Assembly (NCBI RefSeq): GCF_963921235.1
Contig: NC_086097.1
Location: 13,764,001-13,828,000, forward strand
DNA length: 64,000 nt
DNA from: Mobula hypostoma
Taxonomy: Eukaryota
Direction: 5' to 3'
Part shown: piece by piece, positions 11,221 to 60,965 of the stretch
Layout: each line of letters opens with the position of its first letter
Position numbering within the stretch: position 1 is the stretch's first letter
Notes under the pieces: model-generated
The model's database searches: none
Told to the model about the DNA's origin: nothing
The model's input: only the letters and a program-made list of their open reading frames with translations
Program-made: the position numbers and the translations under genes

Positions 11221-12292
11221 TGAAATGGGATCTAATCCTGAACAATGTTGAAAGCCTCAAAGAAGAACACTGGACTGAAACCAACTGCTCACCGATTTGG
11301 ACACCAGCTATCAGAGAAAGAATATGCATTTCCAAAACACATTCAATGTAAGAACCCTTTACACTCAACAGGACAACAAGGCCCAGAGAGAAGATGAGGT
11401 ACTGCTCCGTAGGCTTGCATTGGGCCTCATTTCACTCACAGAAGAGGCTGAATGGACTCCCTGTTCAAAAGGACCAAGGGGACAAATCTCCCGCTAACAC
11501 ACTGCACCAGCTAGTGCCCTGAAAGTACATATACTGAAGAATTTGCTGAAAACAGTTCATAGTCAGACCTTATAAGATGTGAAGAAAGGAAAAAAGGTAA
11601 TATGACAAGTACTGGTAAATTGTTTTTTTTTGCAGCGAGAATAAACTCAGTGTGTGCTGTCCTACTCCTGATATAACATGTCTTTGAACTGTGGGACAGC
11701 TGCACAGAGCTGTTATATGACATGGAAAACGTTGTGAAATATTCAAGAGGCAATGTCTCTCAATCCCCGCAGGAATTGTGAGGAGTGTCTTTTCTTCTCC
11801 CAGTCCCTCGTCATGTTCAAATAACAAGTGTAGAGATGTGCGCTGCCTTGTGTCCCTGTGTCTCTGTGTCTCCTCTGAAGCATTCTTTACATCGCTTCAT
11901 TATACACACTCACAAACAGCAGGTGTTCCCGCGACCCAGATCATTACTACCACAAACATTATCTAAATATGCGAATGTGTTGGCATTCTCTTTAAAGACA
12001 CAGTATCCTCTTTTGATGGTTTATGTGCTGGCTAGGCTTCGGTGGAATTATTCTACCCTTGGACTGGAATCTGAACATTAGTCTCGAAAATGTAATCGCA
12101 CTGTAATACCTCATTTACATCTCAGCCTAGGGATAGGAAAAAGAAGATTTCAGCACAAGCTCGTTATTGCAAATCTCTCAATATAACAAGCTCTTGCCCT
12201 GGTTCTAGTGGAGGCTTCATTATAATCAGTGGCTGGGCTGGAACCATAGTAACAGGAAACCATTGAGTGTTGAGTTGCTCAGTAATACCGTG

Positions 12293-13709: not shown

Positions 13710-14480
13710 CAAAGTAAATTTATTATCAAAGTGCATATATGTCACCATATATAACCCGTGAGCTAGCTGAGGCCCGATGCAAGCCTACGGAACAGTATCT
13801 CATCTTCTCTCTGGGCCCTGTTGTCCCGTTGAGTGTAAAGGGTTCTTACATTAAATGTGTTTTGGAAATGCATATTCTTCAATTTCTTGTGAACATACAC
13901 AGTAAATCCAAAGAACATGATGGAATCACTGAAAGACATCCCGCAACAAAATGAACAAACAACAAATGTGCAAAAGATAACAAACTGCAGAAATGCAGGA
14001 GAAAAGTTAAATAACTAAACAATAATTATTGACAACATGAGACAGAGAGTCCTTGAAGGTGAGATAGGTTGTTGGAACAGCTCAGTGGTGGGGCAAGGGA
14101 GGTTGAGTGAAATCATACCCTTTGGTCCAAGAGCCTGAAGGTTGGGGGGTAGTAACTGTTCCTGAACCTCAATGTGTGTGTCCTGATGCTCCTGTACCTT
14201 CTTCCTGATGACGGCAGTAAGGAGAGAGCATGGCCTGGGTGGCAGGGGTCCTTGATGATGGACGCTGCTTTCCTGCAACGGCTCTGTGAAGGTGTGCACG
14301 ATAGTGGGGAGGACTTTACTCGTGATGGGCTGGGCTGTATCCACTACTTTTTGTAGGATTTCCCATTCAAGGGCATTGGTGTTTCTATAGCAGGCCGTGA
14401 TGCAACTGGTCAATATATTCTCCACCACACATCTCTGGAAGTTTGTCTAAGTTTCAGGTGTCATGCCAAATCTTCACTTT
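13710..14480 (-). mobile_element. Rex1/Babar-like LINE 3' end containing a 112-bp foreign insert
   Basis: ORF 14015..14428 VENILTSCITACY...LQKVVDTAQPIT; family tail at left end. Confidence 0.85.
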
Positions 14481-31185: not shown

Positions 31186-31630
31186 AAACTGGAGGAGCAA
31201 CACCTCATATACCGTCTAGGTAGTCTCCAGCCCCTTGGTATGAACACAGAATTCTCCAACTTCTGGTAATTCCCTTCCCCTCCCTTCCTCTATCCCTATG
31301 TCACTCTGCCCCCTCCCCCAGCTGCCTACCTCCTCCCTCTTGGTTCCGCCTCCTTCTACTACCCATTGTGTTTTCCCCTATTCTTTCTTCACCTTTCCTG
31401 CCTATCACCTCCCTGCCTCCCTTCCCCCACCCCTTTATCTTTCCCCTTACTGGTTTTTCACCTGGAACCTACCAGCCTTCTCCTTCCCACCCTCCCCCAC
31501 CTTCTTTATAGGGCCTCTGCCCCTTCCCTCTACAGTCCTGACAAAGGGTTCCAGCCCGAAACGTCGACCGATCTTTTCCACGGATGCTGCCCGACCTGCT
31601 GAGTTCCTCCAGTGTGTTGGAGTGTTGCTC
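31186..31630 (+). mobile_element. Penelope-like 3' part with hammerhead motif at 31533-31570
   Basis: KLEEQHLIYRLGSLQPLGMN; cagtc ctgacaa a gggttccagccc gaaac gtc gaccg. Confidence 0.9.
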
Positions 31631-34139: not shown

Positions 34140-34225
34140 GTGTCTGTCTGTCTGTCTCTAGTGTGTGCGTGGTGGGCGTCTATGCGTGTGTGTGGGTGTC
34201 TAAGTGTGTGTGTGTGTGTGTGTGT

Positions 34226-34268
<43 letters not shown>

Positions 34269-34662
34269 TGTGTGTCTGCTGCGTGTGTGTGTGTGGTGGG
34301 TGTGGGCGTCTAGGTGTGTGTGCGCGTGTGTGTGTGTTTGTGTGTGGTTCGTGTGTGTCTGTTTGTATATGTGTGTGGTGTGTGTGTGGTGCATGTGTGT
34401 TTGTGTGTGGTTCGTGTGTGTCTGTATATGTGTGTGGTGTGTGTGTGTGGTGTGTGTGTGGTGTGTGTGTGGTGTGTGTGTGTGTGTGTGGTGTGTGTGT
34501 GTGGTGTGTGTGTGTGTGGTGTGTGTGTGTGTCTGTGTGGTGTGTGTGTGTCTGCTGCGTGTGTGATGTGCGTCTATGCATGCGTGTGGGCGTCTAGGTG
34601 TGTGTGCGCGTGTGTGTGTGGTGTGTGTGTGTGTGTGTGTTTGTGTGTGGTTCGTGTGTGTC

Positions 34663-34696
<34 letters not shown>

Positions 34697-35090
34697 GTGC
34701 ATGTGTGTTTGTGTGTGGTTCGTGTGTGTCTGTATATGTGTGTGGGTGTGTGCGCGTGTGTGTGTGTTTGTGTGTGGTTCGTGTGTGTCTGTTTGTATAT
34801 GTGTGTGGTGTGTGTGTGGTGCATGTGTGTTTGTGTGTGGTTCGTGTGTGTCTGTATATGTGTGTGGTGTGTGTGTGTGGTGTGTGTGTGGTGTGTGTGT
34901 GGTGTGTGTGTGTGTGTGGTGTGTGTGTGTGGTGTGTGTGTGTGTGGTGTGTGTGTGTGTCTGTGTGGTGTGTGTGTGTCTGCTGCGTGTGTGATGTGCG
35001 TCTATGCATGCGTGTGGGCGTCTAGGTGTGTGTGCGCGTGTGTGTGTGGTGTGTGTGTGTGTGTGTGTTTGTGTGTGGTTCGTGTGTGTC

Positions 35091-35129
<39 letters not shown>

Positions 35130-35179
35130 TGCATGTGTGTTTGTGTGTGGTTCGTGTGTGTCTGTATATGTGTGTGGGT

Positions 35180-35230
<51 letters not shown>

Positions 35231-35240
35231 TATGTGTGTT
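34140..35240. repeat. Complex (TG)n satellite with higher-order structure
   Basis: Marker tctgctgcgtgtgtgatgtgcgtctatgcatgc at 34551 and 34979 (428-bp period). Confidence 0.95.
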
Positions 35241-36652: not shown

Positions 36653-38165
36653 ATAGAAACATAGAAACATAGAAAATAGGTGCAGGAGTAGGCCATTCGG
36701 CCCTTCGAGCCTGCACCGCCATTTATTATGATCATGGCTGATCATCCAACTCAGAACCCCGCCCCAGCCTTCCCTCCATACCCCCCGACCCCCGTAGCCA
36801 CAAGGGCCATATCTAACTCCCTCTTAAATATAGCCAATGAACTGGCCTCAACAGTTTCCTGTGGCAGAGAGTTCCACAGATTCACCACTCTCTGTGTGAA
36901 GAAGTTTTTCCTAATCTCGGTCCTAAAAGGCTTCCCCTCTATCCTCAAACTGTGACTCCTCGTTCTGGACTTCCCCAACATCGGGAACAATCTTCCTGCA
37001 TCTAGCCTGTCCAATCCCTTTAGGATCTTATACGTTTCAATCAGATGTCCCCTCAATCTTCTAAATTCCAATGAGTACAAGCCCAGTTCATCCAGTCTTT
37101 CTTCATATGAAAGTCCTGCCATCCCAGGAATCAATCTGGTGAACCTTCTTGTACTCCCTCTATGGCAAAGATGTCTTTCCTCAGATTAGGGGACCTAAAC
37201 TGCACACAATACTCCAGGTGTGGTCTCACCAAGGCCTTGTACAACTGCAGTAGTACCTCCCTGCTCCTGTACTCGAATCCTCTCGCTATAAATGCCAGCA
37301 TACCATTCGTCTTTTTCACCGCCTGCTGTACCTGCATGCCCACTTTCAATGACTGGTGTATAATGACACCCAGATCTCGTTGCACCTCCCCTTTTCCTAA
37401 TCGGCCACCATTCAGATAATAATCTGTTTTCCTATTTTTGCCACCAAAGTGGATAACTTCACATTTATCCACATTAAATTGCATCTGCCATGAATTTGCC
37501 CACTCACCCAACCTATCCAAGTCACCCTGCATCCTCTTAGCATCCTCCTCACTGCTAACACTGCCACCCAGCTTCGTGTCATCCGCAAACTTGGAGATGC
37601 TGCATTTAATTCCCTCATCCAAGTCATTAATATATATTGTAAACAACTGGGGTCCCAGCACTGAGCCTTGCGGTACCCCACTAGTCACCGCCTGCCATTC
37701 TGAAAAGGTCCCGTTTATTCCCACTCTTTGCTTCCTGTCTGCTAACCAATTCTCCACCCACACCAATACCTTACCCCCAATACTGTGTGCTTTAAGTTTG
37801 CACACTAATCTCCTGTGTGGGACCTTGTCAAAAGCCTTTTGAAAATCCAAATATACCACATCCACTGGTTCTCCCCTATCCACTCTACCAGTTACATCCT
37901 CAAAAAATTCTATGAGATTCGTCAGACATGATTTTCCTTTCACAAATCCATGCTGACTTTGTCCGATCATTTCACCGCTTTCCAAATGTGCTGTTATCAC
38001 ATCCTTGATAACTGACTCCAGCAGTTTCCCCACCACCGACGTTAGGCTAACCGGTCTATAATTCCCCGGTTTCTCACTCCCGCCTTTTTTAAAAAGTGGG
38101 GTTACATTAGGCACCCTCCAATCCTCAGGAACTAGTCCAGAATCTAACGAGTTTTGAAAAATTAT
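36653..38165 (-). mobile_element. Young 5'-truncated CR1 LINE; RT domain open, one frameshift near 37150
   Basis: ORFs 37131..38192 (NYRPVSLTS, QHGF, YLDFQKAFD, GVPQGSVLGP, FADD) and 36751..37134; (atagaaac)n tail. Confidence 0.97.
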
Positions 38166-38300
38166 AGTACCCTGAGATTTATTTTCTGACATGCATACTC
38201 AATAAATTTATAGAAGATTAACCATAACAAATTATAGTACCCTGAGATTTATTTTCTGATATGCATACTCAATAAATTTATAGAAGATTAACCATAACAG
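38161..38300. repeat. 70-bp tandem duplication
   Basis: 38161-38230 vs 38231-38300 differ at 2 positions. Confidence 0.95.
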
Positions 38301-39555: not shown

Positions 39556-40169
39556 TATTACACCTGAACTTAAATAAAAGTCATGGAGAAACTTGGTGGG
39601 TCAGACAACCTCTGTGGAAGCAGGATGATGATCAGCATTTTGTACTGAGATCCTACATCAGGATTTCTAATCCACTGAGCTCTTCAAACAATTTTTCTTT
39701 GTTCCACATTACATTTCCAGCAGTCTCTTATGTGTCTATTATATCTAAACAGCCTACTGTGGGATTAATGTGAACCCATCCAGGAAATGGATGCTTCTTT
39801 TCAATATAAGTGGCCTGAAATTTCTTCTTTGCCAGTTCAAGTTTCTCCTTTTGATAGTTATTAAGTGGTCACATATTGCTCAGTGGCACCATGACATGCA
39901 GCAGTGATTCTGATCTGGAGACTGTGTTTATAAACCAGTCAATGCTACTAGGTCATAAAGATGTATTGCAGGTCACACGAAGATGAAGGATGGTAAGTAC
40001 TTCTGCTCCAGGTTGCAGTTATTGTGGAACATTTGTGAGAAGAGCAGAAAATTCTGAAGAGAGAACATGAAGACTGGTGAAGAAATTAGAAACCTGATGC
40101 CTTTGCACAAATACTTCTCAAAGTTATGTATCGTTGACTGGATTTAGGGATGAAACAAGTTACCCAATG

Positions 40170-41560
40170 GAAGCAAGGATCCATCATCAAGGACCCCCAC
40201 CACCCAGGCCATGCTCCCTTTTTCCATCATCAAGGAACCTCACCACCCAGGCCATGCAGCATCTCTGGGAAGAGTACAGTCAGTGCTTTAGGCTGAGACT
40301 TTTCATCAGAACTGGTGAAAAAAAGATGAGAAGTCAGAGTTAAGGTGGGGAGAGGGGAGGAAGAAATACAAGGTAGTAGGTGATAGGTGAAACTGAGAGA
40401 GGGGGAGGGCTGAAGTAGAGAGTTGAAAAGCTGATTGGTGAAAGAGATAAGGGCAGCATTTTGTGTGCGCTGCTTGGATATCCAGCATCTGCAGAATTTC
40501 TCTTGTTTGTCACCCAGGCTATGGTCTATTTTTCCATCATCAAGAACCCCCACCACCCAGGCCATGCTCTCTTCTCATTGCTGCCATCAGGAAGCAGATA
40601 TCCCACTTCTCCCGGAAGTTCTGGGAGTCACTGCATATTGATAGTGGCTACCTGATGCCCGCAATTTGTATAAAATGTCCCAGAAATCAATTTTTGGAGA
40701 GAGAAACTGAGCGTGAGAGTGACCACAAGAGAGCGTGCGCACGAGAGAGAGAGCATGAGAGTGACCATGAGAGAGCGCGTGCACGAGAGAGACAGAGCGT
40801 GAGAGCTACCACGAGAGAGAGCGAGCGACAGAGAGTTCCAAAAAAAGAAAATATAAAACGTACGTCACCCCAGACTACCCTAAAGTGTAGCCCTGCCTAA
40901 TAGGGGTCAAAAATAATGACAGTGTTGCTCGCTGCACTGTTTGCAACAGTGACTTTTCTATTGCCCATGGTGGGTTAAGACTGTAAAAGACATGTTGAGG
41001 TGAGTTTAACAGGTGTCATTCGTTCATTAGCATAGCTAACGTTATTTAAACTAGCTGGTTAGCTGCTAAGGAGCTACTCTATTGCAGACATCCCACCTCT
41101 CCCGGAAGTGTCCTGCAAATTGATGGTGCTACCTCCCTGAAATGAGTTTTTGTATGGTGGGATGTCTGATGAGGAAGGTGCAGGTGCCTCAGAACTCACA
41201 CCATCAAGTTCAGGAACAGTTAATACCCCTCAACCATCAGGCTCTTGAACCAGAGGAGATAACTTAACTCGGCCCGGCTCTGAACTGTTCCCACAACCGA
41301 TGGACTCATTTTCAAGAACTCTTTATCTCATGTTCTTGATTTTTTTGCTTATTTAATTGTTATTTTTTTCTTCTCTATTGTATTTGCAGTTTGTTTTCTT
41401 TTGTATATTGGTTGGTTGTCTATCCTGTTGGGTGCGGTCTTTCAATGATTCTATTATGGTTCTAGGATTTACTATATATGCCTACAAGAAAATGAATCTC
41501 AGTTGTATTTAGTGACATATATGTTCTTTGATAATAAATTTACTTGGAACTTGAACCTTG
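40170..41560 (+). mobile_element. Rex1/Babar-like 3' end, interrupted by a Penelope derivative (about 40250-40510) and a TIR element (40595-41168)
   Basis: Three partial ccatcatcaag..ccccaccacccaggccatgc copies; host resumes at 41169. Confidence 0.75.
40595..41168. mobile_element. Composite non-autonomous DNA transposon with cargo
   Basis: TIR cagatatcccac / gtgggatgtctg; flanks atcaggaag / atgaggaag; third TIR copy at 41085. Confidence 0.8.
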
Positions 41561-48329: not shown

Positions 48330-50835
48330 CGAAATTCACAGGTTCATATACAATGATAATAAGAAATAAAAAAGCAGAAATGGTTGGTTATGTTGGAAAG
48401 ATAGACATGCTCAATCGAACAAAATATAACTTGGTGATGTACTCTGAATGAATTGAGCAGTATCTTGAAGCAAATGAAATGGCCAATGAAAAGTGAGTGT
48501 TAGTGTTCCTGACTGCAATTGGTACAGTTTGCTTAGAAGTTTGACTGCTGCAGCCAAACCAACTTTACTTATATAGTGAACGTAATATCAATGGAATATT
48601 TAGAACAGTAACCATTCAGTAACTAATCAAAAGGCAGGGGAGAACATTGCAATTTATGTGATTGAACTGAACAGATAATCCGAGCATTAATGATGAGCTA
48701 CGAGATTGTTTACTTTGAGGAATCTTACAAGAAGCTCAATTCACATTTAAAACAGCGGTTGAAAGTGCTGTATCGATGGAAACATCAGGGGGAGACAAAA
48801 TTAAATTGCAGTTGGGAATGAATGTGAGTGTGAATAAAATTTCAACATCTAAACAGAAACCAGCCTTGCTGAACAAATTGTGTTACCACAAACATGAGAA
48901 AATCTGCAAATGCTGAAAATCCAAAGCAACATATACAAAATGCTGGAGGAACTCAGCAGGCCAGGCTGAATTTATGGAAAAGAATAGTCGATGTTTTGGG
49001 CTGAGATCCTTAATCAGTCCTGATGAAAGGTCTCAGACCAAAACATCAACTATTTACTCTTTTGCATAAATTATATTACCATTGTGGCAGGGGCTCACAG
49101 ATGCCAGACCAACGTATGTTTAAAGGAGAAACTTGCAGAAAATGCAACAAAGTAGGACACATGCAAAGAGCATGTCAGGCAAACAAAAATAAATTGATTG
49201 CACAGGGAAAAGAAAAAGATAAAAAGTAAAATTGCATTCCAAAAAGAGCTCTAATCTGCATGCTGTTGATGAAAAACCTGATAATGATGACAGTGACATA
49301 GGACTGAGAGGCCTGGAGATTTACAACTTGAAAGCTAACAATAGACAAAAGAAGTAAACCAGAAGTAATTGGCAAATTAATTAAAATGGAATTGGACTTT
49401 GGCTTGCTATTTCAGTCATTCCACAAAATGAGTTAAATGGCATTTCAAAGATACTGAACCGAAGCCTGCAGATGTCTGACTAAGAACTTATACTGGAGTA
49501 AAGATAACTTTTGTGGGAATGACATTCATAATAGAGAAATATAACAACCCTCAAGCCATATTTGGCTGGTAACAAGAGAGCCAACATTGATTGGCTGAGA
49601 GTTGATTGGATCCAACCCCAATTTGCATGCCACAGTTGAGTGGAGCCCATGGGCATGGTAGTGAACCCAATAAATGAAAAAGATAGGTCTTTCAGGATCT
49701 GTGGTGATCTTAAGGTACCCATTAATCCAGCATTGAAGGTAGATCAATACACTCTGCCCAGGAGAGAGAATACCTTTGAAGGCCTGTCTGGAGGGAAACA
49801 ATTCAGCAAAGTGGACCTGGTTGAGGCCTGCTTATAGATGGAAATTGAAGAAGAGTTGCTCACCATAAACACTCACAAAGGGCTTTTTCCACCTGGATGA
49901 TATCTGGATGATATCATTGTTAACAGCGAGGGTGACAAGGAACATCCCCAAAATCTTAAAACAGTGTTAAACAGATGAGAAGATTGGGTGCTCAGAGCAC
50001 AATGTGAGTGTGAATTATTTAAATGAAGCGTCGCTTACTGTGGTCACACCATTGATGCAAAAGTATTACACAAATGTGCTAAGAAAGTTCAAGCAGTGGT
50101 AGATGCTCCAAGCCGAAGGACGTATCATAGTTGTGGTCCTTTTTAATACTTGTCTATTCCTTTACAGGTTCCTGCCAAACCTAGCTATTGTGTTCCACCC
50201 TTTGAACTTACTAGTACAGAGTGGAAAGAAATGGCAAAGGACAAAGCAATGTGAGATGGCTTTCTGAGGGTAATGAAAATGGTGACATCAGACACTGTAC
50301 TCACACGTTATGATCCACATCATCCAATGAAGCCTTCCTGTGAAGCCTCGCCTTATAGTATAGTTATAGTCATGTTATGAGTAATGGATGTGAACACCCC
50401 ATAGCAATTGCATCACGTCTTCTTACCACTGAAGAGAAAAATTACACACAGATTGACAGAGAGGCCTTGAATCTGGTTTGGTGAGTAAAACTTTTCAACC
50501 AGTACCTGTATGGGAGAGAGTTTACCCTCATTACTGATCATCAACCACTGGAGTCCATTTTCACTCCACAGAAGGGTGTTTCACTAACAGCAGCAACACA
50601 AATGCAGAGAGGGGCTCTGTTTCTTGTAGGACACAATTACAAGATCAAATTCAAGAGGACAACTAATCATAGAAATGCTGATGGATTGTCCCATTTATGC
50701 TTGGAAAAGGAAATACTAGAAAAATTATAAAGAGGGCACTCCTCCTGACGTATTCTCCCTAATTAAAAGTCTCCCTATTATGGCAGAGATGATCCAAAGA
50801 GAAATTAGAAAATACCCTGTAGTTTCTCAGGTCTG
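48330..50835 (+). mobile_element. Degenerate Ty3/Gypsy gag-pol remnant, no LTRs or integrase seen
   Basis: gag start at about 48380; CCHC knuckle CRKCNKVGHMQRAC; protease MELDFG; RT RICGDLK..INPAL, YLDDIIV; RNase H EKNYTQIDREAL, TDHQPL; many stops and frameshifts. Confidence 0.9.
48889..49067. mobile_element. Penelope-derived fold-back inserted in Gypsy gag
   Basis: Flanked by aaattgtgttacca (48875-48888) and aaattatattacca (49068-49081). Confidence 0.85.
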
Positions 50836-60564: not shown

Positions 60565-60965
60565 CTTCCTTCCCTCCCCCTCCCTTCCCCTATCCCTATG
60601 TCACTCTGCCCCTCCCCCAGCTGCCTATCACCTCCCTCAAGGTTCCGCCTCTTTCTACTACCCATTGTGTTTTCCCCTATTCTTTCTTCACCTTTCCTGC
60701 CTATAACCTCCCTGCCTCCCCTCCCCCACCCCTTTACCTTTCCCCTTACTGGTTTTTCACCTGGAACCTACCAGCCTTCTCCTTCCCATCCTCCTCCCAC
60801 CTTCTTTATAGGGCCTCTGCCCCTTCCCTCTGCAGTCCTGACGAAGGGTTCCGGCCCGAACCATCGACTGATCTTTTCCACGGATGCTGCTCGACCTGCT
60901 GAGTTCCTCCAGTGTGTTGTGAGTGTTGCTTTGACCCCAGCATCTGCAGATTATTTTATGTTTAC
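60565..60965 (+). mobile_element. Penelope-derived element with hammerhead motif at 60833-60870; close relative of 31270-31630
   Basis: cagtc ctgacga a gggttccggccc gaacc atc gactg. Confidence 0.9.

Follow-up and report, generated by a model that had tools for sequence, protein, structure and literature searches.

A 574-bp insert with three terminal repeats in a ray repeat is probably a non-coding derivative of a hAT-type transposon

Results

The insert occupies 574 bp of the window, by which we mean the whole stretch of 64,000 nucleotides that was analyzed, and all of its parts are described on the forward (+) strand. Its left terminal inverted repeat (40595-40606) begins with CAG and pairs with 41157-41168 at 11 of 12 positions. 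Behind it lie a left subterminal region (40607-40696), a GA-rich tandem tract (40697-40835) in which a unit of 42 to 44 bp occurs three times at 40709-40835, an exon-like segment with a splice donor and the beginning of an intron, and an 84-bp mini-element (41085-41168) that closes the insert. Within the mini-element, an internal repeat at 41085-41097 pairs with 41156-41168 at 13 of 13 positions. The left end shares about 60 bases of homology with this internal repeat (78% including gaps; E 2.4e-6), the first ~50 bases of the subterminal region corresponding to 41098-41134, and the mini-element is therefore a second left end (~50 bases) fused to a right end (~34 bases), which provides the right terminal repeat (41156-41168) of the whole insert. 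Folding of the 84-mer is better than that of shuffled sequences (z -3.06; 2/200) because its arms are perfect. A reading made earlier from the sequence only had described the outer repeats, the third repeat that delimits an 84-bp unit partly duplicated by the left end, and the GA-rich tract, and in all of this it was correct. A degenerate terminal 12-mer has three perfect matches in the 64-kb window, all within the element, while the 12 looser matches with two mismatches are at chance level (15 matches in total versus a shuffle mean of 9.8). Neither this nor the repeat search turned up another copy elsewhere in the window.

The insert interrupts a host repeat. The left part of this repeat (40533-40594, +) is the 3' part of an abundant LINE-like element, and the right part (41175-41508, +) was delimited by alignment to uninterrupted paralogs and read contigs. 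Eight uninterrupted paralogs were aligned, at about 7.6, 14.2, 20.2, 24.3, 31.9, 38.6, 46.7, and 54.7 kb in the window. Three of them gave no match in Pfam; we tentatively regard the repeat as the 3' end of a Rex1-like LINE. The earlier reading had proposed a flanking duplication of 9 bp, and the candidate copies at 40586-40594 and 41169-41177 (both +) indeed agree at 8 of 9 positions. In uninterrupted copies, however, read contigs join 40593 directly to 41174. In the register of the host repeat, therefore, only 6 bases are extra, the first 6 bp of the right copy, and these match the last 6 bp of the left copy at 4 of 6 positions. The 9-bp duplication requires that 3 bp were lost from the host copy, a loss that a short purine repeat at the site makes plausible. 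A duplication of 8 bp, as in the canonical hAT group, was not found at these ends, where 2 of 8 positions match at this single copy. Just upstream of the insertion, one segment of the host repeat forms a 43-bp tandem duplication (40158-40257) and recurs in a third copy at 40511-40567, so the host repeat has been rearranged locally.

Between the GA tract and the mini-element lies the broken first coding exon of a putative hAT-type transposase (40840-40999, +), with a basic N terminus, a C-x2-C pair, and the first His of a C2H2/BED-like finger. One frame (40840-40977) contains the basic stretch, the C-x2-C pair, and an HGG motif and is interrupted by a stop codon at 40888-40890. After a frameshift at 40978, seven residues (40979-40999) follow in the next frame, ending in His-Val-Glu immediately before GTGAGT. 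No in-frame ATG was seen just upstream of the exon. The donor (41000-41005, +) is in phase 0, at the position where the exon ends in relatives. The sequence-only reading had combined this donor with an ATG at 40992 into a portable first exon. The donor stands, but the ATG lies out of frame inside the His-Val-Glu codons (40991-40999), the last codons of a 54-codon exon, and we rejected it as the native start, since the relatives have their start some 60 codons upstream of the donor.

The 5' stub of the first intron (41006-41084, +) is rich in TAGC and GCTA, with 7 occurrences in 41026-41085 compared with at most 3 in every other 60-bp segment of the 64 kb, a density that had rightly been noted as unmatched elsewhere in the window. 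It contains one GCTAAC (41035-41040); a second, on the reverse strand, hinges on a letter unlike that of nearly all other copies. Among the read-through tails of nine proteins, only that of P0014 resembled the intron significantly (0 of 150 shuffles). The likeness to the tails of P0003, P0038, and P0042, first seen by eye, was dropped (16 to 61 of 150 shuffles).

The nature of the exon emerged from protein comparisons. When the first 48 amino acids of the exon were used as a phmmer query against 1.84e9 representative proteins (E ≤ 1e-3), 36 matches were obtained, the best with 87% identity (E 4.7e-19). Two of the 36, P0009 and P0018, seem to reflect repeats or a generic BED finger and were left out. 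The distant matches P0007, P0017, and P0034 run on into a hAT-type core, as is seen in a crinoid protein that is 53% identical. A profile built from 19 such proteins identified seven longer proteins among 8,000 scored candidates, three of which contain the Dimer_Tnp_hAT domain at scores over the curated cut-off. With one protein that has this domain, P0046 (722 amino acids), the window peptide can be aligned over residues 2 to 48, 22 of 47 residues being identical (47%; pairwise E 2e-13), and tblastn with P0046 against the window gave an E of 1.4e-8. Another protein, P0047, matches the Hermes transposase (E 9e-4). The Atlas features of P0046 fall in hAT clusters at 0.98; those of the exon piece alone, which can be read as a lead only, fall in unnamed, zf-C2H2_12 (47% of members), and zf-BED (12%) clusters at 0.91 to 0.93. 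As to the subgroup, the hAT5/hAT6/Blackjack lineage is a possible lead.

Pfam returned nothing significant for the exon alone (best E 0.04 to 0.1, to unrelated families), and profile A3 had no matches in the PDB. No full-length transposase close to the exon was found: the close matches (73 to 87%) consist entirely of exon-only fragments or fusions, and hAT proteins of full length reach only 41 to 47% likeness over the exon. Likewise, tblastn did not find the rest of the transposase in the 64-kb window. Homology to hAT, in the broad sense, is confined to the N-terminal exon, the core being missing from the window. In distant relatives, the finger has a further His past the donor position, which implies that exon 1 alone would not suffice for a whole finger. 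The terminal repeats, 12 to 13 bp long and paired at 11/12 and 13/13 positions, agree with those of hAT elements, which are described as about 15 bp (PMC11008031).

Copies of the element are widespread in sequencing data. At least half of the words of 40836-41168 were present in 20 of the 24 runs listed (10 organisms, 11 studies), and contigs of four runs (X1, X2, X10, and X15) were placed on 40480-41290. One X1 contig matches 40567-40858 without a difference, at a depth of 18.7. The summed depth over exon and intron, which gives no copy number and is read here only as many copies, ranges from 2.6e4 to 1.7e6 (about 1e6 in X1 and X2; 3e4 to 9e4 in X10 and X15). The left subterminal region is also multicopy in the four runs, with variants at 40650-40668 in 31 to 76 contigs per run. 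Over the GA tract, which the copies share only poorly, contig depth drops 100- to 10,000-fold in the four runs, and among the records listed for them, none from another copy spans this tract from the left end to the exon. Records 15, 16, and 24 do span the intron and the mini-element in other copies, and this junction is thus a family trait. The 379-nucleotide contig of X2 record 32 covers the mini-element plus 32 bases of right flank (41085-41200), its first 263 bases being unplaced; it may be a mini-element standing alone at a similar site, or else belong to a copy whose interior differs.

Variants among the copies cluster at CpG pairs (40859/60, 40863/64, 40930/31, 41021/22, 41040/41, and 41103/04), as expected in methylated, decaying repeats, and the CpG ratio of the element is 0.62 versus 0.28 for the window. 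The stop at 40888-40890 is nearly private to the window copy, with another letter in 93 to 99% of the depth. The frameshift is common to most of the X1 depth, and a form two bases longer occurs in the four runs in 6, 1, 31, and 13 contigs, so there are differences between subfamilies. Since the flanking repeat is found at high depth in all four runs, none of them looks like an outside lineage. The ratio of the summed depth of the family to that of the flanking repeat (again no copy number) is about 0.27, 0.11, 0.02, and 0.04 in the four runs, a roughly tenfold spread, and the family may in this way help to date the invasion and lineage-specific bursts.

The only named close matches to the exon are two predicted proteins of the razorback sucker Xyrauchen texanus, a cypriniform teleost, namely P0045 and P0002 (XP_051958771.1 and XP_051961297.1). 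Each matches the window exon at 46 of 53 residues. Where the sequence-only reading looked for a single-copy exon 1 in teleosts, we thus find two gene models on different 40-Mb contigs, identical to each other at 54 of 54 residues. In P0045, the exon comes first, opens with a Met of its own some 60 codons ahead of the donor, and is modeled as spliced at His-Val-Glu to chac2 sequence; in this predicted model, the ChaC domain is missing its first ~55 positions. In P0002, likewise a predicted model, the exon comes after LEM/thymopoietin exons. Eight further fragments match the window at 41 to 45 of 53 residues, and all continue into Val-Ser, that is, into a GT-AGT donor. His-Val-Glu is followed by Val in 9 of the 10 close relatives compared, the remaining one being P0045, spliced there to chac2. 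By the pattern of these predicted proteins, the teleost exon is a multicopy mobile exon and not part of a single-copy host gene. The teleost comparison is one of proteins (46/53 residues).

Discussion

In our view, the insert as a whole is probably one copy of a many-copy, non-coding transposon family, a gutted hAT-type element. By homology, its cargo appears to be the first coding exon of a hAT-type transposase with the start of intron 1, in the order expected inside the left end of such an element. The position of the exon between the repeats, together with this homology, makes it likely that it stems from the element's own transposase. The cargo had originally been taken for the captured 5' end of a bony-fish gene; it traces instead to a transposon, an outcome that the sequence-only reading had itself named as speaking against capture. 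The window copy is presumably inert: it has no start codon, it carries a stop and a frameshift, and the last His of the finger would lie in the lost exon 2. The GA tract probably overlies the site at which relatives have their start codon and first codons.

The resemblance to the hAT superfamily, of which Hermes is the solved example, lies in the N-terminal finger, homologous to proteins with DUF4371, PF27073, and Dimer_Tnp_hAT, and in the short terminal repeats. In contrast to hAT elements proper, the insert keeps exon 1 only, and the usual 8-bp duplication is absent at the window copy. Target duplications of 5, 6, and 7 bp are described for some hAT families (PMC12730594) and of 8 or 9 bp for hATm (PMC6004678). 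Membership in hATm was rejected, as the termini begin with CAGA versus 5'-TAGGGTG ... CACCCTA-3' in the hATm elements described there (PMC6004678). We regard the element as functioning like a MITE-type hAT derivative. It is 574 bp long (<800 bp), has terminal repeats and no coding capacity, and occurs in many copies in four runs; like internal-deletion derivatives such as hAT-NA5, described as derived from hAT-5 (PMC6004678), it partly keeps the interior of its parent. Unlike MITEs, it has three terminal repeats, with a right end contributed by a nested 84-bp mini-element, and it keeps a whole exon with its donor as well as a length-variable GA tract. We found no published description of this family; Repbase and Dfam were outside the search, so it is possibly cataloged.

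How might such a composite have arisen and spread? A hAT transposase recognizes the short terminal repeats together with subterminal motifs, cuts the element out, and reinserts it with a short duplication. The window copy, unable to make the enzyme, was likely moved in trans by the transposase of full-length relatives. We lean slightly toward an origin by nested insertion: intron 1 of a full-length element would have received an 84-bp mini-element from the same family, and the transposase would then have paired the original left end with the right end of this mini-element, leaving the rest behind. The alternative for the composite is template switching during gap repair.

As to how the family came to occur in both a ray and a teleost, we think it likely, though a little less so than the identity of the element, that the parent element crossed by horizontal transfer between bony fishes and the host (ray) lineage. 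Horizontal movement had also been part of the sequence-only reading, and the close teleost relative speaks for it; what would have moved, however, is the transposon itself and not a captured gene. A transfer out of a teleost seems the more likely direction, a weak preference given the GCTAAC/TAGC-rich intron. GCTAAC is reported as the top-weighted 6-mer of accessible linkers in hypomethylated promoter domains of medaka, similar to a pattern in zebrafish (PMC5607494). The suggestion that such motifs typify teleost promoter-proximal introns thus finds some backing in the published teleost promoter DNA, but the intron has just one GCTAAC. Its TAGC-rich tract would fit, weakly, a transposon that evolved in teleost genomes, the account of these domains in PMC5607494 including no ray comparison.

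Precedents for such transfers are at hand. The high identity across distant aquatic vertebrates is shared with horizontally transferred fish transposons (PMC7070016, PMC11008031, PMC13343379), and hAT transfers are described among fishes, turtles, and a frog for hAT-6_XT (PMC11008031). The ray cases described, in contrast to ours, are retrotransposons, with ray-teleost transfers of Rex1 and L2 (PMC13343379), and the main text of a study of fish transposon transfers does not contain the terms "shark," "skate," "chondrichth," or "cartilaginous" (PMC7070016). The present family is one more that is common to distant fishes and would add a DNA transposon to the ray-teleost retrotransposon transfers.

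The same element could also be shared without any transfer, through vertical descent in jawed vertebrates or because the teleost or the window sequence is misattributed. The close match is to only one named teleost species and spans just 53 residues, as such an account would have it. Yet a dead fragment that decays neutrally would hardly keep an amino acid identity of 87% over ~462 Ma, the window copy lies inside a host repeat and belongs to a family with CpG-type variation, and the teleost models sit on 40-Mb contigs. We regard an explanation without horizontal transfer as unlikely.

Less probable still is a Pack-type capture, in which a TIR element took up the 5' portion of a teleost gene, perhaps one domesticated from a hAT element, and brought it into the host. 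The sole named close matches are indeed teleost gene models, no close full-length transposase was found, and the intron is TAGC-rich, with a GCTAAC of the kind that marks teleost promoter DNA. Against this stands that the captured piece would itself be a transposase N terminus and that the teleost exon occurs in two places, joined on separate contigs to genes unrelated to each other and with all 54 residues identical, in the manner of a mobile copy; moreover, there are at least three more 90% clusters of exon fragments. Pack-TIRs and Pack-MULEs share with our element the TIR ends around an exon-like interior, but Pack-TIRs are defined by non-TE sequence between TIR ends (PMC8277862), whereas the interior of the window element is transposon derived and not host sequence with a parental gene. 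An exon with a donor inside terminal repeats can therefore be the element's own gene, which calls for caution with similar assignments.

Equally remote is the idea that the 574-bp unit never moved whole and that a left-end fragment and the exon-plus-mini-element body met only at the window locus, as the failure of any listed contig from another copy to span the GA tract, the ~tenfold lower depth of the left end compared with the body, and the imperfect target duplication, 3 bp out of register, might suggest; both ends, however, interrupt one host-repeat copy in register to within 6 bases, left end, 5' tract, exon 1, and intron stand in the order of an intact element, and the low depth may well reflect the variable low-complexity tract and an internal repeat that competes for contigs.

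Returning to a hAT derivative that spread as a mobile element, its donor could come into use in copies that lie in the right orientation within transcribed DNA, as the predicted sucker models suggest. The ATG first proposed as a portable start codon is not the native start of the exon; the teleost exon is modeled as spliced onto host genes. This recalls the capture of transposases by splicing (10.1101/2020.05.07.082677), to which the X. texanus exon modeled onto chac2 and a LEM/thymopoietin gene is similar; the sucker fusions differ in being predicted models, and the window copy differs in having no open exon. Conceivably, although we hold it to be rather unlikely, a teleost-type promoter-proximal module of GA tract, exon, strong phase-0 donor, and GCTAAC/TAGC tract was scattered over many ray loci by a teleost-derived hAT derivative, some copies now acting as portable first exons or open-chromatin seeds. 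This thought owes its appeal to the chac2 model of the razorback sucker, which suggests the same on the teleost side. If true, it would provide a natural experiment on whether the sequence rules of teleost promoters also hold in a cartilaginous fish, and the family would carry greater weight if copies start or splice into host transcripts.

Other searches and repeats in the window

Rfam gave no matches, a scan of metagenomes for a 20-mer pattern gave none, and viral contigs gave none. A 17-mer found 118 metagenome loci, none extending beyond 30 bases, and all were set aside as chance. Of 204 candidate stretches in prokaryotic genomes, only L119 passed, and it was rejected as a short motif that occurs by chance in GC-rich coding DNA of bacteria. 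No host gene was found near the insert when 175 of 184 non-repeat open reading frames of at least 62 codons and 5 repeat open reading frames were scanned, a scan that short exons escape. Its only matches were endonuclease, reverse transcriptase (RT), and RT-RNase H fragments.

Retroelement fragments with open frames lie at 832-1743 (-; endonuclease, 304 amino acids), 37134-38198 (-; reverse transcriptase, 355 amino acids), and 50485-50727 (+; RT-RNase H). Two copies of a 360-bp repeat (31270-31629 and 60570-60930) are 94% identical, far above the other repeats of the window, and an inverted pair (11318-11429 and 13768-13879) is 95% identical. A degenerate GT array of 1.1 kb with higher-order repeats occupies 34161-35239, and a near-perfect 70-bp tandem duplication (38159-38299) marks a point where two repeats meet.
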